Shown in pieces: positions 9,456-44,797 of a stretch of DNA of 44,797 bases. Under the pieces are notes generated by a model. That model was not told the DNA's origin and ran no database searches. It was given only the letters and a program-made list of their open reading frames with translations. The stretch comes from a bacterium (GTDB lineage: Bacteria > Ratteibacteria > UBA8468 > B48-G9 > JAFGKM01), in the NCBI GenBank assembly GCA_026416755.1, contig JAOAEP010000069.1, positions 1 through 44,797 on the forward strand. The letters are read 5' to 3'. How positions within the stretch are numbered: position 1 is the stretch's first letter; the number at the start of each line of letters is the position of its first letter. A program made the position numbers and the translations under genes.

Positions 9456-9490
9456 AAAAGATTTATAATAAGAATTAAAAGGAGGTGGGT

Positions 9491-18624: not shown

Positions 18625-18626
18625 TT

Positions 18627-24179: not shown

Positions 24180-24195
24180 TTTCAATATATAGTAT
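24180..24195 (-). promoter_or_regulatory. candidate NrdR box (proximal)
   Basis: The gene-sense sequence is ATACTATATATTGAAA, versus the remembered consensus acaCwAtATaTwGtgt. The core CTATATATTG differs by 1 nt from the palindrome CAATATATTG. It abuts the nrdR start codon. Confidence 0.5.
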
Positions 24196-24211
24196 TTTAT
24201 AAAAAATTTCA

Positions 24212-24227
24212 CATCAATATATTGTAT
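24212..24227 (-). promoter_or_regulatory. candidate NrdR box (distal)
   Basis: The gene-sense sequence is ATACAATATATTGATG, containing the perfect 10-bp palindrome CAATATATTG (24215-24224). It lies exactly 32 bp from the proximal box, which is about three helical turns and typical of paired NrdR boxes. Confidence 0.55.
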
Positions 24228-25935: not shown

Positions 25936-25974
25936 TTATTCTCCTTTTAAAATTCAGATTCCATTCACTTTAAT

Positions 25975-26868
25975 TTATGATTTTTCTTTTGATAAAAAGG
26001 TAATTATATCTTCTATTGTAATTGAATTTAGACATTTTCTTTCTTTACATTGTTTCATTTTTTCCTTTTCACATGGACTACAACCAACTTTTTTATGGAT
26101 AATTTTAACATTTTCACCTTTTGGTCCCCAAATAAATGGAGAAGTTGGACCAAAAATTGCAATTGTTTCTACCCCTGTAATACTAAATAAATGTGTAATT
26201 CCAGAATCGTTTCCAATATAGGTTATAGTTTCTTTTGCTATCTCTATAATAGTATCAAAACTAGGATTTATAAGTATTTCACCTTTGAAATTTTCTTTCC
26301 AAAAGTAAATTTCTTCCTCTTCTGCAGGACCAAGTAATATTTTAACATTTTCTAATTTTTTACTTAATTGCAAAAAGTTTTCTCTATTCCAATTTTTACT
26401 TTTATTTCCACTCCCAGGATGAATTACATAAAATTTACCTTTATTGTCAATTTTAATTCTGTATATTTCTTCAATTTTACTAAAATAATTTTTTATTGGC
26501 TGAAGTAGATAATCTGAGATGTGGATATTTAGTTCTTTTATTATAGGATGAAAGATTATTTCTTTAGTAAAATTCTCTTCTAAATTTATCCCTAAAATTT
26601 CTTTTCTATCACAAAAAGCATAAATAAGGTCAAAATTCTCCAAAAATTTTTTTAAAACTTTATTATTTTTTTCAAAAAAGAAAACAAATTCATAAGAATC
26701 AATAGGAAAAAACTTATCAACACTTCCATAATTTTCAACAAAACTTTTGTAAATACCTTTACCACATACAAAAACCTGATATCCATTATTTTTAAAAGTA
26801 GCAAAAACAGGAAAAGTAAGAATTAAATCACCAAGAGAACCTTCTCTAATTATTAGTACTTTTTTCAT
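25975..26868 (-). CDS. glycosyltransferase family 9 (heptosyltransferase-like)
   Basis: 297 aa. Has the N-terminal LIIREGSLGDLILTFPVF, IGNDSG..HL and the C-terminal CSPC......C....CL..I motif. It overlaps the upstream ORF by 23 nt. Confidence 0.8.
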   Translation of the reverse strand: MKKVLIIREGSLGDLILTFPVFATFKNNGYQVFVCGKGIYKSFVENYGSVDKFFPIDSYEFVFFFEKNNKVLKKFLENFDLIYAFCDRKEILGINLEENFTKEIIFHPIIKELNIHISDYLLQPIKNYFSKIEEIYRIKIDNKGKFYVIHPGSGNKSKNWNRENFLQLSKKLENVKILLGPAEEEEIYFWKENFKGEILINPSFDTIIEIAKETITYIGNDSGITHLFSITGVETIAIFGPTSPFIWGPKGENVKIIHKKVGCSPCEKEKMKQCKERKCLNSITIEDIITFLSKEKS

Positions 26869-28834
26869 TTTTCATTATCTTTAAAATTTCTTCAAAAATT
26901 ATTTTACTTCCTTCTTCATTAGGTAAATTCACATAAACAAATTCATTCTTTTTAAAAAATTTTTCTCCATTTTCAACTTCCGAAAAAATTTTGTATATAT
27001 CTAAAAAAATAAAACCTCTTTTTTCTGAAATTTTTCTTAGTTTTTCTCTATAAGGTTGAAAAGTTTCTAAATAAGGATAAGAAGGAAATGGTGAAGTCAA
27101 AATTATATTTGACGTTTTTTGAGACAAAAGCCAAAGCATTCCATCATAAACTTTTTCCCATTCATTTAATCTATGTCTTCTTAAAAGTGAGTTTAAAAAA
27201 GGGAAGAAAATAATAAAAGTACTATCATCAATTTGATTTAAAATGTTCTGTATAAATTTAAATTCATTTAAAAGATAATTTACATACTTTTCTTCGGATA
27301 TTTTAAAAATTTCTATTCTCTTTTCTTTATAAAAATCTTTCAACAGTTTATATAAATCTAATGGGAAATCTCCAATAATAACTATTTTAAAAAATTCTTT
27401 TTCTTTTGTCTTCATATTTGAATATTCAGGGATTTTAAAAATAATAAATTCATCACCTTTTTTAAAAAATATCCCATCTATTGAATACTCACTTTCTGTA
27501 AGTCCAACCATCTTTATAATTTTTTCTTCTATTTCTATATCATTAAAATAAATTTTTATTTTAACTTCATTTTGTTGGTCAATAGGTAAAGTCAAAGATT
27601 TGCCGTTTTCTTTCCCAGGTAGAATATATAATTCCTTTTCATTTTTTCCGCTTTTAATTAAACATTTAATTGGAACTGCTGATAAATTTTCAATTTTAAC
27701 TGGAATATACAAAATTTCATAACCATAAACAAAATTCTCAAAAGGAAGAATGTCAAAATTTACTTTAATTTCATTTATGTCTCCTAAAACTATTTTATGA
27801 GAAAATTCACCGTATTCCTTATTTTTCTCTGTTTTAAGTAAAATATTTATTTCTTTTTTTATATCTTCTAATTTAACTATAATTTTTTCTCCAGTATAAG
27901 TTTTCCCTTCAATTTCCCAAAAATATCTATCAGAAGAAGACAAAGTTGCATCAAGTTTTATATAAACAAATTCCATATTTTTAACCTTAAATGGACCTTC
28001 AATTTCATAATCAAAATATGAAGTTTTTTTAGAAATCAAATTTTCAACCTTTCTTAATTTTAATTTTACTGGAACTTCATTTATAGAGGTCATATCCCAA
28101 TATACTTTCCCTTTATCATTATAAAATCCAATCCCTTCTAAATTTCTTTCTCTAATTTTCAAAAGTGGAATTTCTATTTTTACCCACTTTCCCCTTTCAG
28201 GTAAATCACCAATTTTTTCTTTCTTTATACTTTTTATTTTTATATTATCTTTTCCAAAAGAAAAATAATAATGTCTTCTATATCTTGAAATAATTTCCAC
28301 CATAATTTCTTCAGTATTTTCATCTTCAATAAAAACATAAGTGATAACTTTATCTTCAGAAGTAATAGGGAACTGTTTTGGAAAACTAATTCTATGAAAT
28401 GAAAAACCAGCATTTCCTGTATGAGAAAAAATTCCATTTAATGGTTTTTCAACCCATACCCAGACTCCTGATTTTATTGAATTTGGCAATATGTAATCAT
28501 CAATTAAAAGTTCTCCTTTTTTAAATTTATTATACTCTTTATTTTTTTCACTATATCCAAGGAAAACTTTATAATTTATTGAATTGGTAGGTTTGAAAAT
28601 AATCTCCATTTCATTATTTAAAAAATCAACACCTAAAACTTCACATTCTTTCCCATTTTCATCTATAATTTTTATATCATTGTATTTTTCTTTTCCCACA
28701 ATAAATCTAAAGGAAGCAAGTTTTACAGTTTCAATTAAGTTTTTATTTTCACATGAAAGATTTATCATATATTTATATTCAGCAGTAAAAGAAAAAATCT
28801 GTAAGATATAAAAAATAAAGAATATTCTTTTCAT
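26846..28834 (-). CDS. hypothetical secreted protein with a C-terminal degenerate SGNH/GDSL-like domain
   Basis: 662 aa with a signal peptide (IFFIFYILQIFSFTA). The N-terminal 480 aa match no family I recognise. The C-terminal ~175 aa follow the SGNH block order but with substitutions (IIGDF instead of GDS, and VNLPNEEG instead of D..HPN..G). Confidence 0.55.
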   Translation of the reverse strand: MKRIFFIFYILQIFSFTAEYKYMINLSCENKNLIETVKLASFRFIVGKEKYNDIKIIDENGKECEVLGVDFLNNEMEIIFKPTNSINYKVFLGYSEKNKEYNKFKKGELLIDDYILPNSIKSGVWVWVEKPLNGIFSHTGNAGFSFHRISFPKQFPITSEDKVITYVFIEDENTEEIMVEIISRYRRHYYFSFGKDNIKIKSIKKEKIGDLPERGKWVKIEIPLLKIRERNLEGIGFYNDKGKVYWDMTSINEVPVKLKLRKVENLISKKTSYFDYEIEGPFKVKNMEFVYIKLDATLSSSDRYFWEIEGKTYTGEKIIVKLEDIKKEINILLKTEKNKEYGEFSHKIVLGDINEIKVNFDILPFENFVYGYEILYIPVKIENLSAVPIKCLIKSGKNEKELYILPGKENGKSLTLPIDQQNEVKIKIYFNDIEIEEKIIKMVGLTESEYSIDGIFFKKGDEFIIFKIPEYSNMKTKEKEFFKIVIIGDFPLDLYKLLKDFYKEKRIEIFKISEEKYVNYLLNEFKFIQNILNQIDDSTFIIFFPFLNSLLRRHRLNEWEKVYDGMLWLLSQKTSNIILTSPFPSYPYLETFQPYREKLRKISEKRGFIFLDIYKIFSEVENGEKFFKKNEFVYVNLPNEEGSKIIFEEILKIMKNEKSTNN

Positions 28835-31065
28835 TTTTGTCTTTTAATTTTTATAGCAATGTCCTTTTCAAAAGGAATAATAGGAATCAAAAGCCCATCT
28901 TTATTTTCAATTATAATTTCTTTAATAACTTCTCCCTTATATGTATCCCAAAATTCTACTTTATATATACCCTCATTCAAATTTTTAAGTATAAGTTGAG
29001 CATCTTCAATCTTTATTGGATTAATTCTTTTAATTTGACTATTAAATACCTTCTTATCATAAATCCAAAAAAATCCTTCGTCTCTATTCTGAATTCCCAC
29101 AAAATCAACATCCTTTCCCATAATCTTACCATCAGAAATTTGTAAAAATTTTCCCCTCCTATCTTCATTTTCCCAGAATTTTGATAGTGCTTTGTAATGA
29201 AAATATAAGTTAAAGTGTTCAATAAAAGGCCACCACCAGAAAAGAGCAACACCAAACATTGGCATCATTGAAGAAGACCAAATTCCTCCATGTAAATTAT
29301 CCTCAAGATAAACTCTATCTTTGCCAACGCCAAATTCATTTATCATCATTGGTTTACCATATCCCTTTCTTTTCATATAATAGTCCATTACACTATTTAC
29401 TATTAAACTATCATATGCATTCCCAACAAGTGATTCAAGTTCAGGTATAACCCAAACCATTGGATCATCAGGTCTTCTACAGTAATGAGTTGTTATTGCT
29501 CTTTTATAAGGGTCAATTGATTTTAAGTAAGGATACATAATTTTATGCCAATATCTCACTTTATCAGATGAATAAAATCCAGTTAAATCTACTTCATTCC
29601 AGAACTCCCAGAAAACTATATTTGGTGAATAACCCCATCTTGAAACAATATAATTCAATCTCTGTTTAAAATATTCAATCGCTTTTTCATTATCAAAAAA
29701 TTCGTCAGGTGATTTTAAAAAACCTCCATTTATTTCATTATAAGGATTGTCCCACCATTCTGCGTCAGGATGAATGCTAAATTGTCCATGATTAATTAAA
29801 GTTAAAACCATAAAAATTCCATACTTTTCAGCAATATCACAAATATAATCAAGTTTCCATGAATTTTCCAAACTATATTTCCCAAGATTTTTATAATGAG
29901 GGGCATAATTATAATTCCATTCAATCCCAACCCACCAGGCACCCATCCATACCCTTGCATAGTTTTCTCCATTTTCAGCCATTTTTTTAAAATATTTATC
30001 ATAAGCAAAAGTTCCAAGCCCCTTTTTATATGTAAATTCATAAGGATAGGCACTTCTTTCATCATCTGGAGACCTCAAAGTATGCCCTATTGGATAGAAA
30101 AATTTACCATTTGAAAAAGAAAGGTAATATTTATCATTTTTATCCCAATTAACAAAACCATTTCTATCACTTTCAACAACTTCAAAATTCCCTTTATATA
30201 TCTCCATTTCTTTTTCTTTTCCATGTAGTTTTATTTTATATTCATACAAACCAACTTCTTGAGGAGTAAATCTAATTTTCCATTCACTTTTACCATATGG
30301 AATTAATTTTTCTCCTTCTTCATAAAGTGTTCTTAAATAATCATGATAAAAAAAGGCAGATGTTTCAAATAAATTTCCAGACGGAGAAATGAAAATTCCT
30401 TTTAATTTTAAATCAGGATTAAAAGGGTTATTAAATAAATAAGAAACTTCAAATGTAATTTCAAACTTCTCATTTCTTCCTATTTTTTTTGAATTTTCTC
30501 TAAAATTATATATAAAAAATTTTTCTTCATTTTCTCCTTTAAAACCTTCAAAAGAATCAATGTATAATTCACCGTTATAACTATTCCAAAACCATATGAT
30601 TATCCCTATTTCAGTTATATTTTCTTTCACATATGAATCAAAAACTTTAAGATGAGAAACAGGTTGCCAGAAATTAGTATTTTCTTTTAGATTTAATATA
30701 ACTTTTTTTTCTTCGCCTCTTTTTAATTTAATTTTTTCTGTTTCAAACCAATTCCATTCATCATCTTTTATGTATACAATAAATTCACCATCAATTCCAT
30801 CTTCTTCTGGGATATAAATTCTGAATGATAAATAATCAAAATCTTTACAATTAAATCTTCCTTCATGAAAAATTTTTACAATTTTTAAGTTTCTAATTTC
30901 TGCACATAAAGAATATTCGCCAGTACTTGAATATTTTTTGGATGAATAAAGTTTTGAATTTTCATCTTCTATTTTCCAATTGTTTATACTATTTTCAAAA
31001 TCAAAAATTATTTCAGAAAAAAGAGAAATAACAAAAATAAAAGAACAAAAAATTAGTTTTTTCAT
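28831..31065 (-). CDS. secreted DUF5060 + GH5-like (clan GH-A) glycoside hydrolase
   Basis: 744 aa with a signal peptide. It has an NPF.P-type DUF5060-like beta-sandwich (NNPFNPDLKLKGIFISPSG...FFYHDY). The barrel follows, with ENYARVW, FWEFWNEVD (candidate acid/base NE) and MMINEFG (candidate nucleophile E). Confidence 0.7.
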   Translation of the reverse strand: MKKLIFCSFIFVISLFSEIIFDFENSINNWKIEDENSKLYSSKKYSSTGEYSLCAEIRNLKIVKIFHEGRFNCKDFDYLSFRIYIPEEDGIDGEFIVYIKDDEWNWFETEKIKLKRGEEKKVILNLKENTNFWQPVSHLKVFDSYVKENITEIGIIIWFWNSYNGELYIDSFEGFKGENEEKFFIYNFRENSKKIGRNEKFEITFEVSYLFNNPFNPDLKLKGIFISPSGNLFETSAFFYHDYLRTLYEEGEKLIPYGKSEWKIRFTPQEVGLYEYKIKLHGKEKEMEIYKGNFEVVESDRNGFVNWDKNDKYYLSFSNGKFFYPIGHTLRSPDDERSAYPYEFTYKKGLGTFAYDKYFKKMAENGENYARVWMGAWWVGIEWNYNYAPHYKNLGKYSLENSWKLDYICDIAEKYGIFMVLTLINHGQFSIHPDAEWWDNPYNEINGGFLKSPDEFFDNEKAIEYFKQRLNYIVSRWGYSPNIVFWEFWNEVDLTGFYSSDKVRYWHKIMYPYLKSIDPYKRAITTHYCRRPDDPMVWVIPELESLVGNAYDSLIVNSVMDYYMKRKGYGKPMMINEFGVGKDRVYLEDNLHGGIWSSSMMPMFGVALFWWWPFIEHFNLYFHYKALSKFWENEDRRGKFLQISDGKIMGKDVDFVGIQNRDEGFFWIYDKKVFNSQIKRINPIKIEDAQLILKNLNEGIYKVEFWDTYKGEVIKEIIIENKDGLLIPIIPFEKDIAIKIKRQK

Positions 31066-33335
31066 TTTCTATATATTCTTCCCTTAAAAATATATGTCTT
31101 TGATATTTCTTCAATAATTTTTACATTTTCTGGGATAAAGTTTGAAATTTTTAATTCAAAAATATCAAAAACAAAATTATCTTTCTTTTCTTTAATTATT
31201 TTTTCTTCATTTTTCTTCTTATTTATTTCTATCTCTGGAAAGTAGAATGTAACATCTTGATTTTCAGGATATTCAATTTTAATTTTTAAATTTTTAGTTT
31301 TTACATTCCAGACTAATGCATCACCCTCTTCTTCTGCTAATGGTTCAATCATCAAAGGGCTATCATAATTTCTATAGTTTTTAATCTTCACTTCCCAGTC
31401 TTCTTCTTTAAAAGTAAAATCAAAATAGAGAATAAATTTATTATTAGTTATTTCATTTTTAAATTTTAAATCAAACTCGTCAGAAAACTTTTCTATGACA
31501 GGATAAAAAATCTTATATATATTTTTCTTTTTCCACTTATTTTTATCAATAAAAATTTTATCCTGCCATTTTAAATAAAACTTATCAAGGTCTTTGTTAA
31601 TCATCACATAAGGTTCACTTAGAAAATTTTCATTTTCAATCCAACTTTTTAAAATAAATTCTGTTTCTTTCTCGGGTTCTCCATAAGGATAAAATTCAAA
31701 TTCTTTATTTATATGATTTAAAAAAGGTACTTTTTCTGAAGGAATTAATCTTGTTATATTAGTTTCATTTTTTCTTATAATAATATAAAGTAAATTATCA
31801 GTTGCATCTTTCAATACAAAAAAATTCTTTTTTAAATTCTCTATTTCTCTTTGAATTCCTCTATCTCTTGTTATTGTCTCAATTTCATTTAAAATTTCCA
31901 CTCCTTTTTTTATTTCTCCTTTCTCAATTAATATTTTTGCAAGTAAGAATTTGGCATTTTCATTTTCTTTGTTTTTAAACAAAAATTCTTCAACTATCTT
32001 TTTAGCGTCTTCAAGTTTCCCTTTTTTCAGATAACATTCTCCTATATTTAGATAATAATTTTCTTTTTTAAACAACTCAATTAATTTTTGATATTTCTCT
32101 ATTGCTTTCTCATAATCTTCTAATCTTATATAGTGCTCTGCAATTTTTTTTATTATTTCTTCCTTATATTTATCATCATCTATTTTTTCAAGTAACTTCT
32201 CATATTCATTTATTTTTAGGATATAATCATCAACTGTAGAAAGGCGCCTATCAAATTTTCTTTCAATTGTATTTACTGTAAGTTCAATAATAGTCCTTTT
32301 AATTCTTTCATTTTTTGACAAATAATTGAACAAATCCCAAACATCATTTTCCAAAATTTTTCTTTCATTTTCCTCTGTTATATTATTAAATAAATTTGTA
32401 AGAATTGTTTGATTTTTTGGTGAATCTGGAAATATTTTTATAAATTCAATGTAATATTTTGAAAATTTCAAATTATAAGGAAAAACCTTATTAATTATAT
32501 TAAAAATTATATCTCCATTTGTATTTCTCTTTATTTCTTCTTCCTTTAAAATATCAAAACCTTCTTTAATTTTCTCTGAATAAAAATATTCAAAACTTCT
32601 GAAAATTTTATACGAAAGGGTATCTTCTGATAATTCATTCAAAGTTAAATTTCTTTCTTCAGGATTTGAGATTTCTCTATAATAAAAAATTGAAAGAAAA
32701 AGAATATACCAATTATTCTTCTCATTTTTAATTACTTTAAGAAAATTTTCTTTACTATTTTCGTATTCTCCTAAATTGTAATAACTTTCTCCTAAACGTG
32801 CTATTACTTGATAATTTTGTGAATTATGATTTATACAATTAGTATAGTTTTCAATTGCTCTTTGATAATTTTGATTCCAAAAATAATTATTCCCTTTTTC
32901 TTCATATGCTCTTGAAAGATTATTCTTTACATTTTGTAATACGGATACAAATTTAAGATTGTTACCATATTTTTTTAATATTTCTTCGCCTAATTTTATT
33001 ACACTATCCACATTCCTCTCTTTCCACCAGTAGATTTCAGAAAGAACTCTAATTGTTTCCTGAATTATAAATGGATTATCTGTAACTGTTTCATAAATCA
33101 AGTTTTCAAGATACTTTTTTGTTTTCTCTATATTTTTAAGGTAATAATAAGAAAAACCAAGATAAAAGTTTAATTCTGGATTATTTTTATCTTTTGCTTT
33201 TTCAAGGATATTTATTACATTTTCATAGTTTTTTTTATTAAACTCTATTTTTGCTTTTTCAACTACAGATTCTTCTCCACTTAAATAAAAGATAATGAAA
33301 AAAAGGAAAGTAAAAATATAAAATTTTTTTTTCAT
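31062..33335 (-). CDS. secreted tetratricopeptide (TPR) repeat protein
   Basis: 757 aa with a signal peptide. It carries multiple A/Y/N-patterned 34-aa repeats (for example YENVINILEKA..., NYQRAIENYTNCI, YEKAIEKYQKLIE, LEDAKKIVEEFL). Confidence 0.75.
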   Translation of the reverse strand: MKKKFYIFTFLFFIIFYLSGEESVVEKAKIEFNKKNYENVINILEKAKDKNNPELNFYLGFSYYYLKNIEKTKKYLENLIYETVTDNPFIIQETIRVLSEIYWWKERNVDSVIKLGEEILKKYGNNLKFVSVLQNVKNNLSRAYEEKGNNYFWNQNYQRAIENYTNCINHNSQNYQVIARLGESYYNLGEYENSKENFLKVIKNEKNNWYILFLSIFYYREISNPEERNLTLNELSEDTLSYKIFRSFEYFYSEKIKEGFDILKEEEIKRNTNGDIIFNIINKVFPYNLKFSKYYIEFIKIFPDSPKNQTILTNLFNNITEENERKILENDVWDLFNYLSKNERIKRTIIELTVNTIERKFDRRLSTVDDYILKINEYEKLLEKIDDDKYKEEIIKKIAEHYIRLEDYEKAIEKYQKLIELFKKENYYLNIGECYLKKGKLEDAKKIVEEFLFKNKENENAKFLLAKILIEKGEIKKGVEILNEIETITRDRGIQREIENLKKNFFVLKDATDNLLYIIIRKNETNITRLIPSEKVPFLNHINKEFEFYPYGEPEKETEFILKSWIENENFLSEPYVMINKDLDKFYLKWQDKIFIDKNKWKKKNIYKIFYPVIEKFSDEFDLKFKNEITNNKFILYFDFTFKEEDWEVKIKNYRNYDSPLMIEPLAEEEGDALVWNVKTKNLKIKIEYPENQDVTFYFPEIEINKKKNEEKIIKEKKDNFVFDIFELKISNFIPENVKIIEEISKTYIFKGRIYRK

Positions 33336-33338
33336 TTA

Positions 33339-34127: not shown

Positions 34128-34132
34128 TTTTA

Positions 34133-37414: not shown

Positions 37415-37543
37415 TGGTTTACCTCCTTATATACATACGTTTCTACTGTAAAAACTCTTTCTTAGCCTAATTCCCTTACAATTTTAACTGTTTCTCTAAA
37501 ACTATATTCTTTGTTAACATTTTTATTTTCTAACCTTTTTGTT

Positions 37544-40500
37544 TTATTTAACCCATTTTTTGCAATAATTGCTTTTTCTTTTCCATTTCCAGAATAAAGT
37601 TAAGAATATAAGAATTATAGAGATATAAATGAGAATTTTAGAAAGAGCGACACAAACTAAAATTATAATAAAATAAAGTAAAAACCTTGTAAAAAGAAGC
37701 ACCAGTTTATGGGTTCTCAAATATTCAGCAATATCTGGAGAAATTTTATAATAAAACTTTACAAACTTTTTACCAATATAATTTTTAATTAGAATTTTAT
37801 CTCTAAACTCTTTAAGTATCCTTACTTGCCAACTATTTTCTCCAAAACAGACACTTGCAATGAAACAACCACCTCCACCAGGCTCTGGAGGAGGTGGTGG
37901 TGTAATGGTTAATGTTGTAAAATATGTTGGGTCGCTCCATTCAGACCACATTCCATCTGAATCCTGATATCTAACCTGCCAGTAATATGTTTTCCCTTCT
38001 TGAAGGGATGCACTTACTAATATTGAAGTTACTGCACCTGCGTTGAGATTTTGCCAATAAGGAGAACTTGAAGAACCAGTACTTTCCCATAATCTCCATT
38101 GTGAATTACTCATAGTATCCCCATCTTGGTCATAAAATCCAGTTGCTACAAGTAAAGGAGTTAAACTTACACCTGTTGCTCCATTTACAGGATATAAATT
38201 TTCTGGTTTTCTTGGAGGATTTTGTGGTTTTGGCATTGTTGTAAAACTTGCTTCATTACTCCAGTTAGACCACGTACCCCACTGGTCTTGATACCTTACC
38301 TGCCAGTAATAAGTAGTAGAATATAAAAGAATTCCAGAAGGGACAGAAATTGATGTTGTAGTAGTTTCAGCCTGCCAAATATATGTAGAACTTCCACTTT
38401 GTCTAATTCTCCATTGTGCTTTTAAAAAACTATCTCCATCAGGGTCACTAAAAGCAGAACCTGTCAAAGTTGGAGTTAATGTAATACCTACTGCTCCACT
38501 GGTCGGTGATTGACCTGTTGGCGTTAAAGGAGCACTATTTGTTCTTGTTGTAAAACTTGTTTCATCACTCCAATCAGACCAACCACCATTTACATCTTTA
38601 TATCTAACATGCCAGAAGTATTTTGTATTAAAACTTAATCTACCAGAAGGAACCTGATGGGAAGTAACTGCTCCTATTTCACCACTATCATAAACAGGAT
38701 TATTATAAGTTGAATTTTCTAATCTAATCTGCCATTGAGAACCTGCAAAGTTAACATTTGTTGGATGAGAATAATTAGATGCTTGCAAAGTAGGTATTAT
38801 AGAAACACCAGTTGCATTGTTTGGTGGTAGTAGATTTGTTGGTTTATTTGGTCTTGTTGTAGTTAATGTTATTTCATTTGTATAGTTAGAGTATTGCCTC
38901 CCTGAAACAATATCTCTATAACCTCTTACTCTATATGAATAAGATGTATTTTCTGTAAGACCAGCCCCATTTTCATCATCTATATATGTAGTAATATCTC
39001 TTCCGACCGTTCCTATCTCCACAAAATTACCACTCCCTATTTTTCTTTCTATTATAAATCCATCTTCTTCTGGATTCTCAGAATTATCAGTCCAGTTTAA
39101 TACAATGCGCCACTTCCCATTTAAATATTCAGCATAACCAGTTAAATTTGTTGGATCTTGTAATTGTCCTGTACTTGTTGTTACATTCACTATATTAGAC
39201 CATGTTGAGTAAGTAGGAGGGGTTGTAATAAATGCTCTTACTCTGTAATAATAAGTTGTATCAGGAGCAAGCCCATTTCCACTATTATCATCTGTAAATG
39301 TTGTTATATCTCTACCGACTTGTCCTATTGTCTGCCATGTTCCAGTTGTTCCTATTCTTCTCTGTATTTCAAAGCCATCTTCATCTGGATTTTCTGAATT
39401 ATCAAGCCAGTTTAAAACAACCTGCCATTTTCCATTTACAAATTGGGGAGTTGCTGATATAATCTGTGGCGCATTTAATACAATTGGTTGCCCAATTATA
39501 ATTGCATTTGTTCCTACTAAATATTCTCCTGATGTCCCCTGGTCAAACTTTATTCTATCACCGGCAAAGCCTAAAGGAACGGATAAATCATTTCTAATTT
39601 CAACTCTAAAGGTCTCTCCCGTAACTGCATTTTCAGAAGTCCTTAAAATAATATAATAATCGTCTCCTGAATTAGAACCAGTATCATCATTGGGGATAGC
39701 ATAAACACTATCAGGCAAAGTTAAAACAATCTTATTACCTGAAAAACTTATTGATTTAAGATTAATTGGAAGGTCATCAATATCCCAACCAGAATTTATT
39801 CCACTTTCTTTAAATAATGCAATTCCACTTAAACTTCCATCTGTTGTTAACTGTTTTAGATTATATAAGTTTCCTGTATAATAAATCACAATTTCCTTTA
39901 AATATCTACCTCCGTCTGTCCCATCTCTTTTACCATCAAATAAATTAATTCCAATTGCAGGACAATCATAGGTTGGTGGAATAACATAATTGTTACTTGG
40001 AATTAGGTATGTAAGTTTAACATTTAAATTTCCAGTTAATGTATGGGTTTTTAAATTTATATTTGCGAAAGAATAACCAGAAGAAAAAACAAGTCCATTT
40101 GAAGGTAGAGAAATAGAAAATTTATCTCCATATAATAGATTATTACTTGTCCTTATTGCAACAAAAAATTCATTTCCAGTATTTGTTGTAGGTAATGAAA
40201 TATTTTGAGGAAAAACGCCATCTAAATACCAACCAAGACAGTTTCTTCCTCTTCCTACAAAATAAATATCATCTCCATCTGTATACTTTCCATCCTGGTC
40301 TTCATCATAAAATACAAAACCAAATGCTCCTTGGTGTAATTTTTCTCCAAATGTTCCTGATGAAGGAGTTGTTCCAACTATAACTTTATCAGTTTGTGAA
40401 TTAAATATACCGTCATCTTCATTGTCAAGCCATAAACAATCTTCCAAACTCCATATACTATCATTATTAGCATCATACCAGTAAACTCTATCATCCCAAT

Positions 40501-43500
40501 TAAAATAAGAAAGAACTTTCCCTTGCCAATTTATTATCTGTGTCTTATATCCTTGACCAGAAGTTGTAGTTCCATCTCCATCAACAAATCCATCAACATA
40601 ATCTGACTTCCAACTTGACCAACTAACGGGAATTAAAGTATCTGCTCTCCAATCAAAAATATCATTATTATTTGTATCTCGCCATATTGAAACACCACTT
40701 AAAATATTATTTGTTAAAGGAGCAATTATTTCAGAAAAAGGGGTAGTGTCAGGGAAAATTCCTTCTTCTGGATTGAAATAAACTCTTATTTTTTGAAGTT
40801 GATTTGTTCCTGTTGAATGGTCCCATGCACTTATTCCTATTACTCCAATTGGGTCACTTGTAGCATCTATAATTTGACCTGAAGTTGTTAGGTCTGTAAA
40901 AATTGTTGCAGTTACTGTTGTATTTGTTAAGGTATATGTTATTACTCTTTTATAAGTTATTCCACCTGCATCTCCAGTAAAAGTCAAGGTATTTTCACCA
41001 ACAAGATTACTTCCCCAAAGCAATATATGAAACCTATCACCTGGGTCCATGTTTTCATTTGGTTGAATTACAAGAAAATAATCAGGTCCAGCATTCTGTC
41101 CAACATCATTTGTTGGAATATAACCAACAGATGTATGATTTGTAAAATTAGGAGGAGGGTCTCCAAATTCTAATCTTACTCTAAATCTTCCTTGTGGGTC
41201 ATCTGCTGCTCTTGGTAATAAATAGGGTAATTTTGTCATCCACACTCTTTTATCAAGCGGGTCAAATATTCCATTTCTATTTGTATCCTTATATAAAGCA
41301 ATTCCACATCCACCATCAGGATCATTTGGATCTGAATTTGGTTTAACAAGTTCTGAAAAATCTAAAGTAGGAGGATTGTTGTTATCAATTATTATTAAAC
41401 TCATAGAACTAAAAGAAATATTTTTACCAGGAGGAGCAACAAGATTTATTCCAATTACTGGTGTCTTTGTAAATCTATTAATTGATTGTTCAGAATAAGT
41501 TAAATTTGTAAAGAAAGTTGGAACTGTCGCAGGGAAAGTAAAAGTTTCAATTGGCTCATATATTCCATCTCTATTATTATCAGGGAAAATCCTTGCCCAA
41601 TAACCATTTGTAAAAAGTATATCTTCCCATGGATAATTATTTATTATTGAAGGTCTATCATTATATTTTGTTAAACCAATTGCTGCTCTTACACTCATTC
41701 CATAGTCAATCCCTCTTTCAAAAGTATTATTTGATTTATATGCTGTCTCAGGGACACTAATCCCTCTTGGTTTAATACATATAAATAAATCAAATCCACG
41801 ATTTTCTTGTCTTCCTGGATAATCCGTTCCTCTTATAAAATCATCATTGGGAAGAGGTATAGGATTTTTCGGCTTTAAAACTACAAAATATCTCTTATCA
41901 TCATCATTTGGATTTGCAGGGTCATCATTTGTAGGAGACCATTTTGTTCCATCTGAGTTATACCATTCAAGAGAACTTGCATCAAGAGGAACAAAAGTAT
42001 CTGAAATTGTAACTCTATGAATACTGGAAAGCATATCATTTTCAGTAATTGTTCTACTATCAGGAAGTCCAAGAGTTCCACCTGTTTTATTATCAAGCCA
42101 TAAACTTACACCAGAGTCCTGGTCATCACTTAAAGGCATCAATTTATTTGGTTTAAATCCATTTTCTCCTTTAAACCAGACCCTTATCCATTGAAGTGCC
42201 TCATTTTGTGCAAAAGGTCCCCAACTATCTGTCATATTAATGTGAAAAATTGGAATTGGAACTCCATCTGCTTCAATAGGTCCATCTATTAGATTTGGTT
42301 TTATATCAAAAGCAATCCTTACATCTTTTACCTTATCTCTTGTTCTCGTTAAAGTCGGTGAACGATAAATACTCGGGTCAGGACTTTCTCCAATAGGTCT
42401 TGTTACAACAATGCCATCATCATATACAGAAGGATCTATATAAATTTTAAAATCAGAACCATACCAGGGTCTATTTGTAACCCAACCATGGCTTGGATCA
42501 GTAGCAATAACAACAAAAAAGTCAACAAGCCCATCAGCGGTTTGATCAAGATTAATCCCTGAAAAATTAAAAGTAACTTTCCATCTATTATTTCCCTCAG
42601 GTGAAGGAGGAAGGGGGTCAATCTGCATATGAGGAGTCCCAGGTATCACATTTGAAGCAAGTATTCTTATATCATTTGCAGGATTAAAATAACCATCTCC
42701 GTTATCCCTGTAAATTGCTATGTTTGAATAAGGAGAAAGTTGATGAGAAGCAAGCATACCTGGGTCAAAATTTCCAGGAATTCCTGTATCTTCTATAATA
42801 ACAGTTACTCTTGAAAGTTGCTCATTATCATTTCCTGAATATGTACTTCTTCCTTTTAAACTAAATCCAATAACTCTATAAGGAATACACATACCACATA
42901 ATTCAGGAACTGCCAGAGTAAAATCAATATCTTGTGCAACAAATTGAAATAATGGATGGTCCTGTTTATATGCTCTATAATTATAAAGTGGACCATAAAG
43001 GTAATGACGAAAAACTCCAACATTTGAACTTATTGTAGGATACCCATTTATTTCAGTTAAACTACTTGGGTCATAGGAATCACTTCTCATAGGAACTAAA
43101 TCAACAACTCTTGAATCACATATAATCGTATTTGTACCTATAGACAGAGGCCAACCAACTCTTACTATAAACTTATTTCTATAATCATAACCTCCAGGCA
43201 TATCTCCTGAAATTTTATCAGAGGTAAAAATAACAACCCATAGGTCTGGTCCTTGCGTCCCATTTTGAGCATCGTCAGAACCATATATTGAAAAATTTAT
43301 TGGAATATCAAAAGATAAACTGCCTAATTGACTTGGGTTAACAGAACCAATTTCATAATCCGCTGGGTCAAAAACTCCTTTCGCTCCTACATCCCTATAA
43401 ATTGCAACTTTCCTAAAATCTTCAGGTAATATGGGATGATTAGCTCCTGGAGAAGTATAAATGGATACATAAACACTATTAAGAACATCTCCTGGTTGAG

Positions 43501-43687
43501 GCCAGCCAGCAGAAGTATTTGCTGAAAGATTTAAACCAATAACAGCAGTAGGACCGCTCATTGGAAGAATTGCTTGATTGGGTTGTGTTAAATCTACTCC
43601 TGACCTTACTGCCCATGCACCAAAACAAATTTGTGGTATAAAAAGAATAAAAAATAAACAAAGGAAACCCTTTCTTTTATCTTTCAT
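37544..43687 (-). CDS. giant (2047 aa) repeat-rich secreted surface protein with two FN3 domains, three ~100-aa tandem repeats and the shared CFIAS C-terminal anchor module
   Basis: A single uninterrupted ORF with a signal peptide (FLCLFFILFIPQICFGA) and a GAGGAGG SD. The domain layout was read directly from the translation. The tail from Cys1941 reads CFIASVCFGENSWQVRILKEFRD...KFYYKISP...hydrophobic...KRK. Confidence 0.85.
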   Translation of the reverse strand: MKDKRKGFLCLFFILFIPQICFGAWAVRSGVDLTQPNQAILPMSGPTAVIGLNLSANTSAGWPQPGDVLNSVYVSIYTSPGANHPILPEDFRKVAIYRDVGAKGVFDPADYEIGSVNPSQLGSLSFDIPINFSIYGSDDAQNGTQGPDLWVVIFTSDKISGDMPGGYDYRNKFIVRVGWPLSIGTNTIICDSRVVDLVPMRSDSYDPSSLTEINGYPTISSNVGVFRHYLYGPLYNYRAYKQDHPLFQFVAQDIDFTLAVPELCGMCIPYRVIGFSLKGRSTYSGNDNEQLSRVTVIIEDTGIPGNFDPGMLASHQLSPYSNIAIYRDNGDGYFNPANDIRILASNVIPGTPHMQIDPLPPSPEGNNRWKVTFNFSGINLDQTADGLVDFFVVIATDPSHGWVTNRPWYGSDFKIYIDPSVYDDGIVVTRPIGESPDPSIYRSPTLTRTRDKVKDVRIAFDIKPNLIDGPIEADGVPIPIFHINMTDSWGPFAQNEALQWIRVWFKGENGFKPNKLMPLSDDQDSGVSLWLDNKTGGTLGLPDSRTITENDMLSSIHRVTISDTFVPLDASSLEWYNSDGTKWSPTNDDPANPNDDDKRYFVVLKPKNPIPLPNDDFIRGTDYPGRQENRGFDLFICIKPRGISVPETAYKSNNTFERGIDYGMSVRAAIGLTKYNDRPSIINNYPWEDILFTNGYWARIFPDNNRDGIYEPIETFTFPATVPTFFTNLTYSEQSINRFTKTPVIGINLVAPPGKNISFSSMSLIIIDNNNPPTLDFSELVKPNSDPNDPDGGCGIALYKDTNRNGIFDPLDKRVWMTKLPYLLPRAADDPQGRFRVRLEFGDPPPNFTNHTSVGYIPTNDVGQNAGPDYFLVIQPNENMDPGDRFHILLWGSNLVGENTLTFTGDAGGITYKRVITYTLTNTTVTATIFTDLTTSGQIIDATSDPIGVIGISAWDHSTGTNQLQKIRVYFNPEEGIFPDTTPFSEIIAPLTNNILSGVSIWRDTNNNDIFDWRADTLIPVSWSSWKSDYVDGFVDGDGTTTSGQGYKTQIINWQGKVLSYFNWDDRVYWYDANNDSIWSLEDCLWLDNEDDGIFNSQTDKVIVGTTPSSGTFGEKLHQGAFGFVFYDEDQDGKYTDGDDIYFVGRGRNCLGWYLDGVFPQNISLPTTNTGNEFFVAIRTSNNLLYGDKFSISLPSNGLVFSSGYSFANINLKTHTLTGNLNVKLTYLIPSNNYVIPPTYDCPAIGINLFDGKRDGTDGGRYLKEIVIYYTGNLYNLKQLTTDGSLSGIALFKESGINSGWDIDDLPINLKSISFSGNKIVLTLPDSVYAIPNDDTGSNSGDDYYIILRTSENAVTGETFRVEIRNDLSVPLGFAGDRIKFDQGTSGEYLVGTNAIIIGQPIVLNAPQIISATPQFVNGKWQVVLNWLDNSENPDEDGFEIQRRIGTTGTWQTIGQVGRDITTFTDDNSGNGLAPDTTYYYRVRAFITTPPTYSTWSNIVNVTTSTGQLQDPTNLTGYAEYLNGKWRIVLNWTDNSENPEEDGFIIERKIGSGNFVEIGTVGRDITTYIDDENGAGLTENTSYSYRVRGYRDIVSGRQYSNYTNEITLTTTRPNKPTNLLPPNNATGVSIIPTLQASNYSHPTNVNFAGSQWQIRLENSTYNNPVYDSGEIGAVTSHQVPSGRLSFNTKYFWHVRYKDVNGGWSDWSDETSFTTRTNSAPLTPTGQSPTSGAVGITLTPTLTGSAFSDPDGDSFLKAQWRIRQSGSSTYIWQAETTTTSISVPSGILLYSTTYYWQVRYQDQWGTWSNWSNEASFTTMPKPQNPPRKPENLYPVNGATGVSLTPLLVATGFYDQDGDTMSNSQWRLWESTGSSSSPYWQNLNAGAVTSILVSASLQEGKTYYWQVRYQDSDGMWSEWSDPTYFTTLTITPPPPPEPGGGGCFIASVCFGENSWQVRILKEFRDKILIKNYIGKKFVKFYYKISPDIAEYLRTHKLVLLFTRFLLYFIIILVCVALSKILIYISIILIFLTLFWKWKRKSNYCKKWVK
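37797..37876 (-). repeat. nucleotide-conserved core of the C-terminal anchor module, copy B (giant protein)
   Basis: Same block as copy A. The identical 26-mer lies at 37824-37849. Confidence 0.85.
37913..38854 (-). repeat. three tandem ~100-aa coding repeats inside the giant gene
   Basis: Residues 1612-1714, 1715-1817 and 1818-1925 each run P..P.N..P..GA.GV...P.L.........D......QW.I...............S..V.......T.Y.W.VRY.D..G.WS.WS....FTT. Confidence 0.8.
38855..39475 (-). repeat. two tandem FN3-like coding repeats inside the giant gene
   Basis: Residues ~1405-1503 and ~1509-1611 share NGKW(Q/R)(V/I)VLNW.DNSENP(D/E)EDGF.I.R.IG......IG.VGRDITT..DD..G.GL...T.Y.YRVR. Confidence 0.8.
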
Positions 43688-43738
43688 TTTACCTCCTCAT
43701 TCTTTTATTTTTATTATATTTAGACAACTTTTTTAATT

Positions 43739-44797
43739 TTATAGTTTAGCGAGAATTCTTTTTTGTAAAAAATAAGAAAGAAAGACCAAGCAAATTAATA
43801 TTAATAATATCCCATGGTGAACTATAAAATAAGAGACAAAAATTAAAGGATAAAGGATTGCCTTTAAAAGTGTTTTAATTACAATTTTATCCTTTATATA
43901 TTCTTTAACATAAGGAGAATATTTATAATAGAATTTAACAAACTTTCTACCTAATTCAAATTTCATTAAAACTCTATCTCTAAACTCTTTCAATATTTTA
44001 ACTTGCCAACTATTTTCTCCAAAACATACACTTGCAATAAAACACCCTCCTCCACCTTCTTCTACTGGTATGGTTTCTCTATATTCAATTAAATAACTTG
44101 GTGGATTTGTACAGTCAACTTCTCCATAATCATTAAATGCACTTACTTTATAATACCACATTCCAACTGAAGGTGGAGTATCCACTGCTGTCCTTGCATT
44201 CGGGTCATAAATTATTTTAACATGACTACCCCAATTAGATGGGTCTAAACTTCTATAAATCTTAAATCCTCTTAATGTCCCTGTTGTTGGTACATAATTC
44301 CAGTAGATGTTAATATTATTTATTCCAAGTTCACACCTTAAATTTGTTGGTACATTTGGTAAATCAAGAGTTGTTGTGGGTCTTAAAATATATGTTTTTG
44401 ATGCAGAAGTGGCAATTATCTCAATTATTCCATCATTATTTATGTCTGAAACAATAATTTTCTTTATATTATCTTGTAGATTATAAGACATAATTTCATT
44501 TAAGGTATTGTTAAGGATCTTAACATATGTCCCATAACTCACTATAATTTCTTTCCCTGCTTTGCCATCAAAATCAACACATGCCCATACTTTTCCTATA
44601 CCTTGTTTTTCAAGAGTAAACTGATTCATATCTATAAGATAAAGATTTTCATAAAGATCAGATATTAAAAGTTCTTTAACATTATCGTTATCTATATCAC
44701 TTAAAGCATATTTAACCTCTTGAGTATAAACAGTTAAAGAAGATTGGGCTAAAACATTTCCATTTTTGGGGTCAAATCTATAAATTGTCAATGGAAC
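43739..44797 (-). CDS. FG-GAP/VCBS-like repeat + FN3 protein with the shared CFIAS C-terminal anchor module (5' end outside the window)
   Basis: The frame is open to the window edge, and the track M at 44791 is an internal TTG. DIDNDNVKELL, VDFDGKAGKEII and SDINNDGIIEII are FG-GAP-like Ca loops. An FN3 domain follows (PTNL...YYKVSAFN). The tail reads GGGGCFIASVCFGENSWQVKILKEFRD...KFYYKYSP...hydrophobic...KR. Confidence 0.8.
   Translation of the reverse strand, partial: VPLTIYRFDPKNGNVLAQSSLTVYTQEVKYALSDIDNDNVKELLISDLYENLYLIDMNQFTLEKQGIGKVWACVDFDGKAGKEIIVSYGTYVKILNNTLNEIMSYNLQDNIKKIIVSDINNDGIIEIIATSASKTYILRPTTTLDLPNVPTNLRCELGINNINIYWNYVPTTGTLRGFKIYRSLDPSNWGSHVKIIYDPNARTAVDTPPSVGMWYYKVSAFNDYGEVDCTNPPSYLIEYRETIPVEEGGGGCFIASVCFGENSWQVKILKEFRDRVLMKFELGRKFVKFYYKYSPYVKEYIKDKIVIKTLLKAILYPLIFVSYFIVHHGILLILICLVFLSYFLQKRILAKL
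43974..44053 (-). repeat. nucleotide-conserved core of the C-terminal anchor module, copy C (FG-GAP/FN3 protein)
   Basis: Same block as copy A. The identical 26-mer lies at 44001-44026. Confidence 0.85.

Follow-up and report, generated by a model that had tools for sequence, protein, structure and literature searches.

A 19-kb block of genes for exported proteins in a Ratteibacteria genome as a probable juxtaposition of three units

The locus and its genes

The window, that is, the whole stretch of DNA analysed here (44,797 nucleotides), comes from a compact genome (27% GC) of the Ratteibacteria lineage. Between positions 25975 and 44797, all genes lie on the minus strand, and the ORF coordinates and junctions of the preliminary description were found to be correct: three pairs of genes overlap (by 23, 4 and 4 nt), two are separated by 3 and 5 nt, and the only wider gaps measure 51 nt (43688-43738) and 129 nt (37415-37543). 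The genes can be sorted into three units, A to C.

33339-44797 and beyond, minus strand: unit A, tailed surface-protein array with the GspC-like gene (variable cargo)
43739..44797, minus strand: 3' part (352 codons) of a gene for an FG-GAP-like beta-propeller/FN3-like surface protein with a CFI-box-CTERM tail (translation, profiles)
37544..43687, minus strand: 2047-aa exported multidomain protein with a CFI-box-CTERM tail (signal peptide, domain profiles)
34133..37414, minus strand: 1093-aa S8 subtilase with a signal peptide and a CFI-box-CTERM tail (Peptidase_S8, 150.7 bits)
34136..34450, minus strand: CFI-box-CTERM tail at the end of the S8 protease (three paralogous tails in the window)
37547-37891 and 43742-44056, minus strand: the other two paralogous CFI-box-CTERM tails (tail comparison)
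33339..34127, minus strand: 262-aa GspC-like protein with an N-terminal anchor, proline-rich linker, HR-like domain and C-terminal PDZ domain (profiles)
26846-33335, minus strand: unit B, the TPR-GH-unk662 cassette (conserved three-gene exported cassette)
31062..33335, minus strand: 757-aa exported TPR protein, first gene of the cassette (profiles, family HMM)
28831..31065, minus strand: 744-aa exported glycoside hydrolase, DUF5060, clan GH-A (profiles, PDB match)
26846..28834, minus strand: 662-aa exported protein (unk662), a beta-sandwich array (GH2-N-terminal-like/Ig-like) with a C-terminal dead SGNH domain (AF2 model, motifs)
25153-26868, minus strand: unit C, GT9 and alpha/beta-hydrolase (syntenic backbone)
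25975..26868, minus strand: 297-aa cytoplasmic GT9-family glycosyltransferase (Glyco_transf_9, 60.8 bits)
25153..25935, minus strand: 260-aa cytoplasmic alpha/beta-hydrolase with a GLSMG nucleophile elbow (profiles, motif)

That seven exported products follow one another is a genuine feature of this region. Hydrophobic N-termini are present in the six complete products; the truncated FG-GAP product ends in a membrane tail, and its 972-aa orthologue in the related locus L014 carries a signal peptide. The gene for the FG-GAP product extends past the window end (orthologues are about 972 aa or longer), and its FG-GAP_3 match is weak (E=0.0038). The domains proposed at the outset (S8 protease, GspC-like HR and PDZ, TPR, DUF5060/GH-A glycosidase, dead SGNH and GT9) were all recovered.

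The 2047-aa protein carries five "IAIYRDxNxNGxFD" motifs within its N-terminal 1300 aa, FN3-like domains and three Rha78A-N-type Ig domains. The S8 subtilase has a fervidolysin-type pro-domain, a catalytic domain with an intact triad (D139/H225/S396), and NIDO-like and FN3-like domains. The most telling feature common to the products, left unused in the preliminary description, is that three of them end in the same CFI-box-CTERM tail. Against a curated cutoff of 40 bits for NF041770 (CFI-box-CTERM), the tails of the FG-GAP product, the 2047-aa protein and the S8 protease score 72.2, 68.8 and 72.9 bits. The pattern GGCFIAS.CFGENSWQV..L..FRD ... YY..SP is followed by a hydrophobic stretch of about 45 aa and then by basic residues; 26 columns are invariant in an alignment of eight tails, and at the DNA level the tails appear as a 159-nt repeat with 77-81% identity.

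Tight same-strand packing had been regarded as distinctive of the block, which was thought to end at 25975. In fact, tight minus-strand packing carries on as far as 15744, across housekeeping genes (alpha/beta-hydrolase, flavin reductase, NrdR/NrdD/NrdG, GT4, SDR and others), and the median spacing is 3 nt inside the block and -0.5 nt outside it (Mann-Whitney p=0.72). The tight spacing of the 19-kb block is the normal packing of this genome. Strong Shine-Dalgarno sequences precede the giant-protein and S8 genes, and promoter-like and terminator-like matches occur at chance level only.

Gene order in related loci

The block was compared with about 40 related loci from MAGs of uncultured Ratteibacteria and "Omnitrophica". 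The full A-B-C order is kept only in close relatives (at least eight, with 54-78% identity), in which the junctions are equally tight and housekeeping synteny is kept too. At 29-37% identity, only the TPR-GH-unk662 cassette stays together, with or without the GT9 and hydrolase genes, and the genes upstream are unrelated. Unit B stands alone behind unrelated or divergent genes in L003, L004, L008 and L009 (34-37% identity) and in L007. It is absent between the GspC-like gene and the GT9 or hydrolase gene in L046, L047, L050 and L010, the first three of which have GT9 directly after the GspC-like gene; depending on the relative, the GspC-like gene runs straight into a GT9, hydrolase or radical-SAM gene.

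The cargo of unit A varies as well, around a constant tail and a conserved GspC-like gene at the end of the array. FG-GAP, M6 peptidase and C25-like proteins are encoded in L010 and L014, the 2047-aa giant is missing from L015 and the S8 protease from L044 and L045, other tailed proteins serve as cargo in L046, and L052 has a tailed array followed by the GspC-like gene and then a radical-SAM gene. In at least 15 distant loci, homologues of the window genes at 6357-8417 and 8442-9455 come next after the GspC-like gene. Since RNR and radical-SAM genes, 24 kb away in the window, follow the GspC-like gene in distant relatives, the junction between units A and B, with its 3-nt gap, represents a rearrangement joint.

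The preliminary description had named a failure of gene order in relatives as a finding that would count against its proposal, and such a failure was largely observed: the block decomposes. We therefore favour, with moderate confidence, the interpretation that it is a lineage-specific juxtaposition of units A, B and C and not one co-evolving machine. With the full order and tight junctions kept in the closest relatives, the three units might nevertheless be co-transcribed and cooperate functionally within this lineage.

Unit B and a possible link to envelope glycans

The TPR protein consists of about 500 aa of helical repeats and a conserved C-terminal domain of about 250 aa. Its structural model has a pLDDT of 58.7 (below 50 in the C-terminal domain), and its family HMM matches far relatives, including L007 at E=1e-19. 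The glycosidase comprises a CBM-like domain, a DUF5060 Ig-like domain, a clan GH-A TIM barrel and a C-terminal beta-sandwich, with the catalytic motifs WNE489 (acid/base) and INE577FG (nucleophile) intact. Residues 192-741 match PDB entries 9gmj/9gpc at E=5e-83, and there are weak matches to GH5 mannanases and GH158. The window protein has in common with these solved DUF5060 glycosidases and related entries the Ig-like domain, the TIM barrel with its NE and E motifs and the C-terminal sandwich; it differs from them in its signal peptide and in an additional CBM-like domain of some 190 aa at the N-terminus. A literature search yielded no substrate for the solved DUF5060 glycosidase. The unk662 gene always adjoins the glycosidase gene, and its AF2 model (pLDDT 84) confirms a C-terminal SGNH fold (4rw0, TM 0.74) in which GDS has become GDF and no DxxH is present.

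Synthase-dependent exopolysaccharide systems (Pel, Psl, alginate, cellulose, PNAG) include exported sets of a TPR scaffold, a glycosidase or lyase and an SGNH-like protein. The same trio of exported protein types is found here, and unit B with GT9, perhaps also the nearby GT4, could form the periplasmic processing arm of a pathway for an envelope glycan or exopolysaccharide of the cell itself instead of a nutrient-degrading set. The combination of the TPR protein, a periplasmic clan GH-A hydrolase and an SGNH-fold protein suggests such a function, as does the translational coupling of unit B to GT9 in most lineages. The best sub-threshold matches point the same way: PrsT for the TPR protein, exosortase-associated hydrolase 1 for the hydrolase and a PEP-CTERM system glycosyltransferase for GT4. 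However, these PrsT, exosortase-associated and PEP-CTERM NCBIfam matches lie far under their cutoffs, and no gene for a synthase, polymerase, flippase or outer-membrane exporter was found in the window or any related locus. Unlike the synthase-dependent systems, the window also has neither a c-di-GMP receptor nor a porin; the SGNH domain lacks both catalytic residues, Ser and His; the TPR protein showed no porin-like barrel, although its model is poor; and GT9 is missing from the cassette in L049, L005 and L007. A processing arm of this kind for the cell's own glycans is unlikely. The GT9 protein itself scores under the equivalog cutoffs of LPS heptosyltransferases I, II and III.

The GspC-like gene and the tailed proteins

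The GspC-like protein has the anchor-linker-HR-PDZ architecture of T2SS GspC (EpsC/OutC/PulC; NF041515 GspC_delta), but falls under every curated cutoff: NF041515 matches nearly its full length with 104.9 bits (E=6.5e-30; cutoff 150) and TIGR01713 with 64.1 bits (cutoff 101.6). Its family profile matches the GspC HR structures 2lnv/7oio and the OutC/PulC PDZ domain, and its homologues form 38 clusters, some of which were named "T2SS protein C" by JGI. In contrast to T2SS gspC, the gene follows surface-protein or glycosidase genes and precedes housekeeping genes. It is an orphan that never adjoins gspD-M in the roughly 40 loci. Neither the window nor the region upstream of the array in L014 holds a gene for a secretin, sortase or rhomboid, or any other T2SS gene.

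CFI-box-CTERM tails occur on single proteins in many phyla. Like NF041770, those of the window sit at the C-terminus, have a Gly-rich lead-in, carry the CFIA(S/T), FRD and YY..SP motifs and close with a hydrophobic stretch and basic residues; the difference lies in two to three tailed genes in tandem with exchangeable cargo and the GspC-like gene last. A literature search turned up no publication on this domain.

Unit A might be a secretion and display module in which the tail holds the proteins in the inner membrane, processing takes place near the GGGC motif, and the GspC-like PDZ domain hands the proteins, via their Ig/FN3 domains, to a T2SS for display on the outer surface. A precedent is VesB of Vibrio cholerae, which needs its C-terminal sorting domain (GlyGly-CTERM), rhombosortase and the T2SS (PMC6219818) and is the only substrate to depend on the PDZ domain of EpsC, by way of its own Ig fold (PMC12369372). 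The window shares with it a serine protease, an Ig-type domain, a C-terminal membrane sorting region and a link to a PDZ-bearing GspC. Ig/FN3-type domains stand just before the tail in every cargo protein, and some 14 loci with several downstream contexts, L052 among them, have tailed genes immediately before the GspC-like gene; in L048, a 573-aa ORF without tail or match lies between them. Yet the two are neighbours only where the GspC-like protein is 48% or more identical to that of the window, which fits inherited synteny in one clade; where identity is 46% or lower, the GspC-like gene is still present but has no tailed genes beside it. In 24 tail-bearing loci of other phyla, the tailed gene stands by itself; these loci share no neighbour and contain no GspC-like ORF. 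No processing enzyme, rhombosortase included, or secretin was seen nearby, and the tail is of another family: a basic spacer of some 45 aa separates its Cys motif from the hydrophobic stretch, an arrangement that sets it apart from known tripartite sorting signals. Display through a T2SS is quite improbable.

In Omnitrophota, T2SS-like loci adjoin giant genes (bioRxiv 10.1101/2023.11.21.568195). The likeness is that attachment and carbohydrate-active domains occur in large exported proteins whose genes lie near a T2SS-type gene, and Ratteibacteria are a neighbouring phylum of the PVC group. In the Omnitrophota loci, however, more than ten secretion subunits (gspD/E/F, pilins) lie upstream of genes for proteins of more than 10,000 aa with many TM segments, whereas the window has a single GspC-like gene downstream of genes for proteins of one to two thousand aa. 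For 34 Ratteibacteria genomes, the same study reports that no protein reaches 5,000 aa (bioRxiv 10.1101/2023.11.21.568195).

Possible functions of the three units

That the whole 19 kb is one operon for a single new cell-surface attachment or degradation machine, with parts that assemble and act together, is very doubtful: the common strand, the tiny gaps and overlaps, the seven exported products in a row, the order kept in close relatives and the 51-nt and 129-nt gaps without a convincing terminator are in its favour, but the block splits apart in relatives, cargo genes are gained and lost even among close ones, units A and B meet at a rearrangement joint, and tight spacing is genome-wide, reaching into nrd and other housekeeping genes. 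Of the original proposal, the exported envelope or surface proteins with an intact protease and glycosidase are supported, while the single coupled apparatus is not. Its parts, moreover, can be assigned to known families: the CFI-box-CTERM domain, GspC of the T2SS, S8 subtilases and a DUF5060 glycosidase whose structure has been solved. With an intact protease and an intact glycosidase among the exported products, a role in polymer attachment or degradation is a reasonable prediction.

For the three juxtaposed units, the domain content, catalytic motifs, tails and conservation pattern found suggest a scheme in which localisation, anchoring, substrate and interaction between parts are inferred. 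Unit A would provide, for export via Sec, a variable array with the beta-propeller/FN3 protein, the 2047-aa protein and an S8 zymogen, which the hydrophobic stretch and basic end of the CFI-box tail may hold on the envelope. By homology, the GspC-like protein would connect a platform in the inner membrane with a secretin whose gene lies outside the locus, a T2SS elsewhere in the genome being assumed. The translationally coupled unit B would provide a TPR scaffold, a predicted active retaining clan GH-A glycosidase (DUF5060) and a non-catalytic beta-sandwich/pseudo-SGNH partner that may bind or present the glycan substrate. Together, the units would supply the cell with envelope-bound proteolytic, glycan-cleaving and binding activities. 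The cytoplasmic GT9 and alpha/beta-hydrolase of unit C are part of the conserved backbone. The alpha/beta-hydrolase gene lies outside the coordinates originally drawn for the block, yet it travels with the block in relatives.

The region as a probable composite of three units

The minus-strand region 25975-44797 is best explained as a composite of three units. Unit A (33339-44797 and beyond) consists of an array of tailed proteins, so called because they close with the CFI-box-CTERM domain (NF041770), and a GspC-like protein. Unit B (26846-33335) comprises a TPR protein, a glycosidase (GH) and a protein of 662 aa termed unk662. Unit C (25153-26868) comprises a GT9 glycosyltransferase and an alpha/beta-hydrolase and is predicted to be cytoplasmic. 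The preliminary description had regarded the region as one coupled surface apparatus; this view is not borne out, since the region decomposes into these units in relatives. The ORF map reproduced all of the coordinates first reported, and the earlier domain calls agree with Pfam and NCBIfam.

43739-44797, minus strand: FG-GAP protein, ORF running off the window
37544-43687, minus strand: giant protein, 2047 aa
34133-37414, minus strand: S8 protease, 1093 aa
33339-34127, minus strand: GspC-like protein, 262 aa
31062-33335, minus strand: TPR protein, 757 aa
28831-31065, minus strand: GH (DUF5060-type glycosidase), 744 aa
26846-28834, minus strand: unk662, 662 aa
25975-26868, minus strand: GT9, 297 aa

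The ORFs of the region overlap at three junctions, by 23, 4 and 4 nt, and are separated at the others by gaps of 3, 5, 51 and 129 nt; each of the two largest gaps ends in a strong Shine-Dalgarno sequence. The GC content is 22-35%. As proposed earlier, the products upstream are of the exported type: the six complete ones have hydrophobic N-termini, which most other products of the window lack. The tight coupling of the minus-strand run, in contrast, is not distinctive. The run has no boundary at 25975 and goes on, equally packed, to 15744, through genes for the alpha/beta-hydrolase, flavin reductase, an FmdB zinc ribbon, NrdR, NrdD, NrdG, GT4, an RsbW-like protein, SDR, a methyltransferase and an HPS/RraA fusion. 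The median same-strand spacing is 3 nt inside the region versus -0.5 nt outside (Mann-Whitney p=0.72). Even recent rearrangement joints in very compact genomes show gaps of 3 nt and overlaps of 4 nt, and tight spacing is therefore no evidence of a functional unit. Scans for promoter-like and terminator-like elements gave matches at the level of shuffled sequence, that is, of chance, in the AT-rich DNA of the window, and Rfam and tRNA scans detected no RNA genes in it.

Under the longest-ORF rule, the ORFs at 17881-18684 and 18627-19397 overlap by 58 nt, and the methyltransferase gene starts with TTG. Because its orthologue in the related locus L001 is called at 250 aa and leaves a gap of 3 nt, translation probably starts further downstream.

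Gene order in related genomes

About 40 related loci (designated by L numbers), anchored on unk662, the GspC-like protein or the tail, were collected, and every protein of the window was mapped onto them. The only sources of homologues were MAGs that carry the label Candidatus Ratteibacteria, 'Candidatus Omnitrophica/Omnitrophota' or 'bacterium'; several were recovered from hot springs. According to a preprint, genomes listed by BV-BRC as Omnitrophica are placed in Ratteibacteria by GTDB (bioRxiv 10.1101/2023.11.21.568195).

Conservation of gene order, which the preliminary description had named as its own test, holds only for close relatives (54-78% protein identity; L001, L042, L043, L048), which keep the whole order; the block splits in others. 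Since nrd and other housekeeping genes also stand in the same order in the close relatives, their agreement is plain synteny. The cargo, meaning the tailed proteins of the array, differs even among close relatives. The giant protein is absent from L015 and the S8 protease from L044/L045; L046/L047 carry other tailed proteins, and L010/L014 encode an FG-GAP protein, an M6 peptidase and a C25-like protein of 1824 aa, all tailed. Relative to 34133-44797 of the window, the turnover in L015, L044, L045, L046 and L010/L014 is one of presence/absence and replacement.

The unit conserved across relatives is TPR-GH-unk662. At 34-37% identity (L003/4, L008/9), this trio has a divergent ABC-ATPase gene before it and neither a GspC-like nor a tailed gene. 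GH and unk662 are still present at 29-34% identity (L005-L007), and the ORF upstream of them in L007 matches the C-terminal domain of the TPR family (E=1e-19). In its place between the flanking genes, the trio is also dispensable: the GspC-like gene leads directly into GT9 and the hydrolase in L046, L047 and L050, and directly into the hydrolase in L010. L049 has the hydrolase after the trio and lacks GT9 there.

In at least 15 distant loci (36-50% identity), a radical-SAM gene comes after the GspC-like gene, in some of them with a ribonucleotide reductase (RNR) gene between the two. These RNR and radical-SAM genes are homologues of 6357-8417 and 8442-9455 of the window and are regarded as the neighbours that the GspC-like gene had ancestrally; in L052, it stands between a tailed array and the radical-SAM gene. 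Because the distant loci place RNR and radical-SAM genes after the GspC-like gene, its joint with the TPR gene (33335/33339, a 3-nt gap) is a lineage-specific rearrangement point.

In about 14 Ratteibacteria loci, the GspC-like gene has a tailed gene immediately before it, and in all of them the GspC-like protein is at least 48% identical to that of the window. In L048, an unrelated ORF of 573 aa separates the two. None of the loci whose GspC-like protein is at most 46% identical has a tailed gene directly upstream; what stands there are glycosidases (GH2, DUF5060 + apiosidase-like, GH39), dockerin and Flg_new proteins, or a divergent Tol-Pal cluster. A tailed gene in L062 is about 6 kb off, on the opposite strand. 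This pattern is explained by inheritance in a single clade no less well than by a functional link.

In L058 (3107-4732) and L069 (8201-9826), a different DUF5060 glycosidase, with an apiosidase-like catalytic domain, precedes the GspC-like gene in the company of GH2 and GH39 genes. These contexts indicate that glycosidase genes often adjoin the GspC-like gene even without tailed genes.

The CFI-box tail and its cargo

The FG-GAP protein, the giant protein and the S8 protease score 72.2, 68.8 and 72.9 bits against NF041770, all above its curated cutoff of 40 bits. In each, the tail occupies the extreme C-terminus, where the Cys-Phe-Ile motif comes first, then a hydrophobic segment, then basic residues. 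Its pattern is GGGCFIAS.CFGENSWQV..L..FRD...G...V..YY..SP; in the alignment of the tails (A1), the invariant columns are GGCFIAS.CFGE.SWQV, FRD and YY..SP. By hydropathy, about 45 residues after the motif form a hydrophobic stretch, and basic K/R residues follow at the end. The tailed products of unit A would be Sec-exported, tail-anchored binding and proteolytic proteins.

The S8 protease matches Peptidase_S8 with 150.7 bits (Pfam cutoff 21.8), has an intact triad of D139 (LDTGI), H225 (HGTHV) and S396 (GTSMA), and carries a fervidolysin-type pro-domain. A PDB sequence search with the giant protein returned nothing informative. This protein contains five motifs of the 'IAIYRDxNxNGxFD' type, at aa 94, 323, 796, 999 and 1289 and thus about 200-470 aa apart, all confined to its N-terminal 1300 residues. 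This part of the protein matches nothing in Pfam or PDB, and the motifs may form calcium-binding loops in a repeated module that has not been described. The three tails of the window share a DNA segment of 159 nt with 77-81% identity (34277-34435, 37721-37879, 43898-44056). This repeat could act as a recombination substrate.

When GTDB representative genomes were scanned with a tail profile, the domain turned up in Nitrospiria, Gammaproteobacteria, Bacteroidota, Thermodesulfobacteriota, Bdellovibrionota, Campylobacterota, Methylomirabilota, Myxococcota and Chloroflexia. In these other phyla the tailed gene is solitary and has no GspC-like ORF nearby. No partner gene common to tailed loci across phyla was found, only lineage-local synteny. 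A literature search for 'CFI-box-CTERM' yielded nothing useful.

The GspC-like protein

[quoted passage not shown] The architecture is that of GspC, namely an N-terminal hydrophobic segment as putative TM anchor, an HR domain and a C-terminal PDZ domain. A family profile was built from 24 homologues. Profile A3 matches the GspC HR structures 2lnv (E=1e-3) and 7oio (E=0.04) over residues 56-126, and PDZ domains including those of OutC (6hcg_e) and PulC (5hj1) over residues 169-264. Some homologues have been named 'type II secretion system protein C' by JGI.

No T2SS core genes (gspD, E, F, G-M) occur in the 44.8-kb window or in the flanks of the approximately 40 related loci, and the partners of the GspC-like protein, if any, would be encoded elsewhere. 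The window contains no rhomboid, sortase or exosortase genes. Upstream of the array in L014 there is neither a secretin nor a sortase gene; this stretch encodes a small membrane protein, a MATE transporter, an SGNH-like protein and a divergent citramalate synthase.

That T2SS genes precede the GspC-like gene in distant relatives was considered and ruled out: the ORFs at this position encode GH2, DUF5060 + apiosidase-like and GH39 glycosidases, URO-D-like proteins, and dockerin and chitobiase-C-terminal-domain proteins.

The TPR-glycosidase-unk662 trio

Unit B would be an exported glycan-processing trio in which a scaffold and a non-catalytic binding partner accompany an active retaining glycosidase. 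Residues 192-741 of the glycosidase match PDB 9gmj/9gpc ('DUF5060 domain-containing protein') with E=5e-83, and there are weak matches to GH5 mannanase and GH158. The clan GH-A motifs WNE489VD (acid/base) and INE577FG (nucleophile) are present and kept in orthologues. A literature search on DUF5060/PF16586 and on 9gmj/9gpc found nothing useful.

The protein unk662 has no family at the sequence level, and PDB sequence searches with it and with the TPR protein were uninformative. Its AF2 model (18-sequence alignment, pLDDT 84) shows successive beta-sandwich domains resembling GH2 N-terminal and Ig-like arrays. It ends in an SGNH fold (residues ~480-660) that matches 4rw0 (TM 0.74) and also 3hp4 and PatB (7trr). 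This domain had been called a dead SGNH, rightly so, because GDS is replaced by GDF (GDF488P) and DxxH is missing; the family consensus also reads GDFP. Judged by these motifs, it is a pseudoenzyme.

Full-length unk662 is rare, with about 17 clusters at 50% identity among 1.84 billion representatives. The family profile matches 1114 representative proteins at E<=1e-3, and in nearly all of the non-full-length matches listed, the aligned stretch is a domain of about 140 aa. This domain (residues ~107-249; window 28090-28516, minus strand) has invariant Trp, His and Asp positions, has no match in Pfam or NCBIfam, and does not recur in other proteins of the window. It is often repeated or C-terminal in secreted proteins of 500-4600 aa, such as a GH84/GH20b/CBM4_9 protein and an NHL propeller protein, and looks like an undescribed glycan-binding or surface module.

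The TPR protein is helical up to about residue 500, followed by a C-terminal domain of about 250 aa. Its AF2 model is poor (pLDDT 58.7, below 50 in the C-terminal region), because the homologue search with this domain gave a single fragment; in this low-confidence model the domain has only a few short strands.

A role of unit B in exopolysaccharide processing is possible, but neither a synthase nor an exporter is present. Synthase-dependent systems of the Pel/Pga/Bcs/Alg type require a membrane synthase (GT2 or PelF type) and a TPR-porin exporter, whereas no synthase occurs in the window or the related loci. The glycosyltransferase of unit C passes the Pfam cutoff for Glyco_transf_9 (60.8 versus 22) and reaches 44 bits in the heptosyltransferase I/II/III equivalog models, which have cutoffs of 135-185 bits.

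Relation to known systems

A display route for unit A has a low probability in view of the distribution of tailed and GspC-like genes. The tail would act as a C-terminal sorting signal, and a dedicated PDZ-bearing GspC homologue would pass the cargo (proteases, propeller and Ig-rich binders) to a T2SS, the cargo being kept on the outer surface. The presence of Ig/FN3 domains before the tail in every cargo protein speaks for such a route, with VesB of Vibrio cholerae as a precedent. The surface localisation of VesB requires its GlyGly-CTERM domain, rhombosortase and the T2SS (PMC6219818), and VesB is the only substrate that needs the PDZ domain of EpsC, via its Ig fold (PMC12369372). The adjacency of tailed and GspC-like genes, however, is also what inheritance in one clade would produce. 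Moreover, the tail differs from GlyGly-CTERM, in which a Gly/Ser motif abuts the TM helix: it belongs to another family and has a spacer of about 45 aa, and the rhombosortase gene that GlyGly-CTERM requires has no rhomboid counterpart in the window. If the display route were real, the widespread CFI-box-CTERM domain would gain its first functional context. It is quite unlikely that cargo array and orphan GspC-like protein form an unrecognised display route and that, at the same time, the trio forms a new periplasmic glycan-processing complex specific to Ratteibacteria.

Among published locus types, the giant-gene loci of Omnitrophota (bioRxiv 10.1101/2023.11.21.568195) come nearest, but differ in scale and content. 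There, a protein of more than about 10,000 aa follows a T2SS/T4P-like locus of more than 10 subunits, whereas the largest protein here has 2047 aa; no protein of at least 5,000 aa was found in Ratteibacteria in the same study. All parts of the composite come from described families (CFI-box-CTERM, GspC-like, S8, DUF5060 of clan GH-A with a solved structure, the SGNH fold, TPR and GT9). New are the tandem arrangement of exchangeable CFI-box cargo with an orphan GspC-like gene at its end, the conserved TPR-GH-pseudoSGNH trio, and the domain of about 140 aa inside unk662, which is not in Pfam yet widespread.

Ratteibacteria are uncultured, and almost nothing is known of their dealings with polymers or other cells. 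The locus yields three testable items: an exchangeable array of tailed envelope proteins, namely a protease and binding proteins that are putatively anchored by one common C-terminal tail; an orphan GspC-like protein conserved across the lineage; and a conserved exported-glycosidase cassette of three genes.

Other genes of the window

The window encodes two ribonucleotide reductase systems. The first is represented by an ATP-cone large-subunit-type gene (6357-8417) that adjoins the radical-SAM gene, the second by NrdR-NrdD-NrdG (anaerobic class III; 20952-24212). Two predicted membrane or exported proteins have no Pfam match, one of 170 aa (5724-6236) and one of 256 aa (9485-10255), the latter being conserved beside the radical-SAM gene in relatives (L052).
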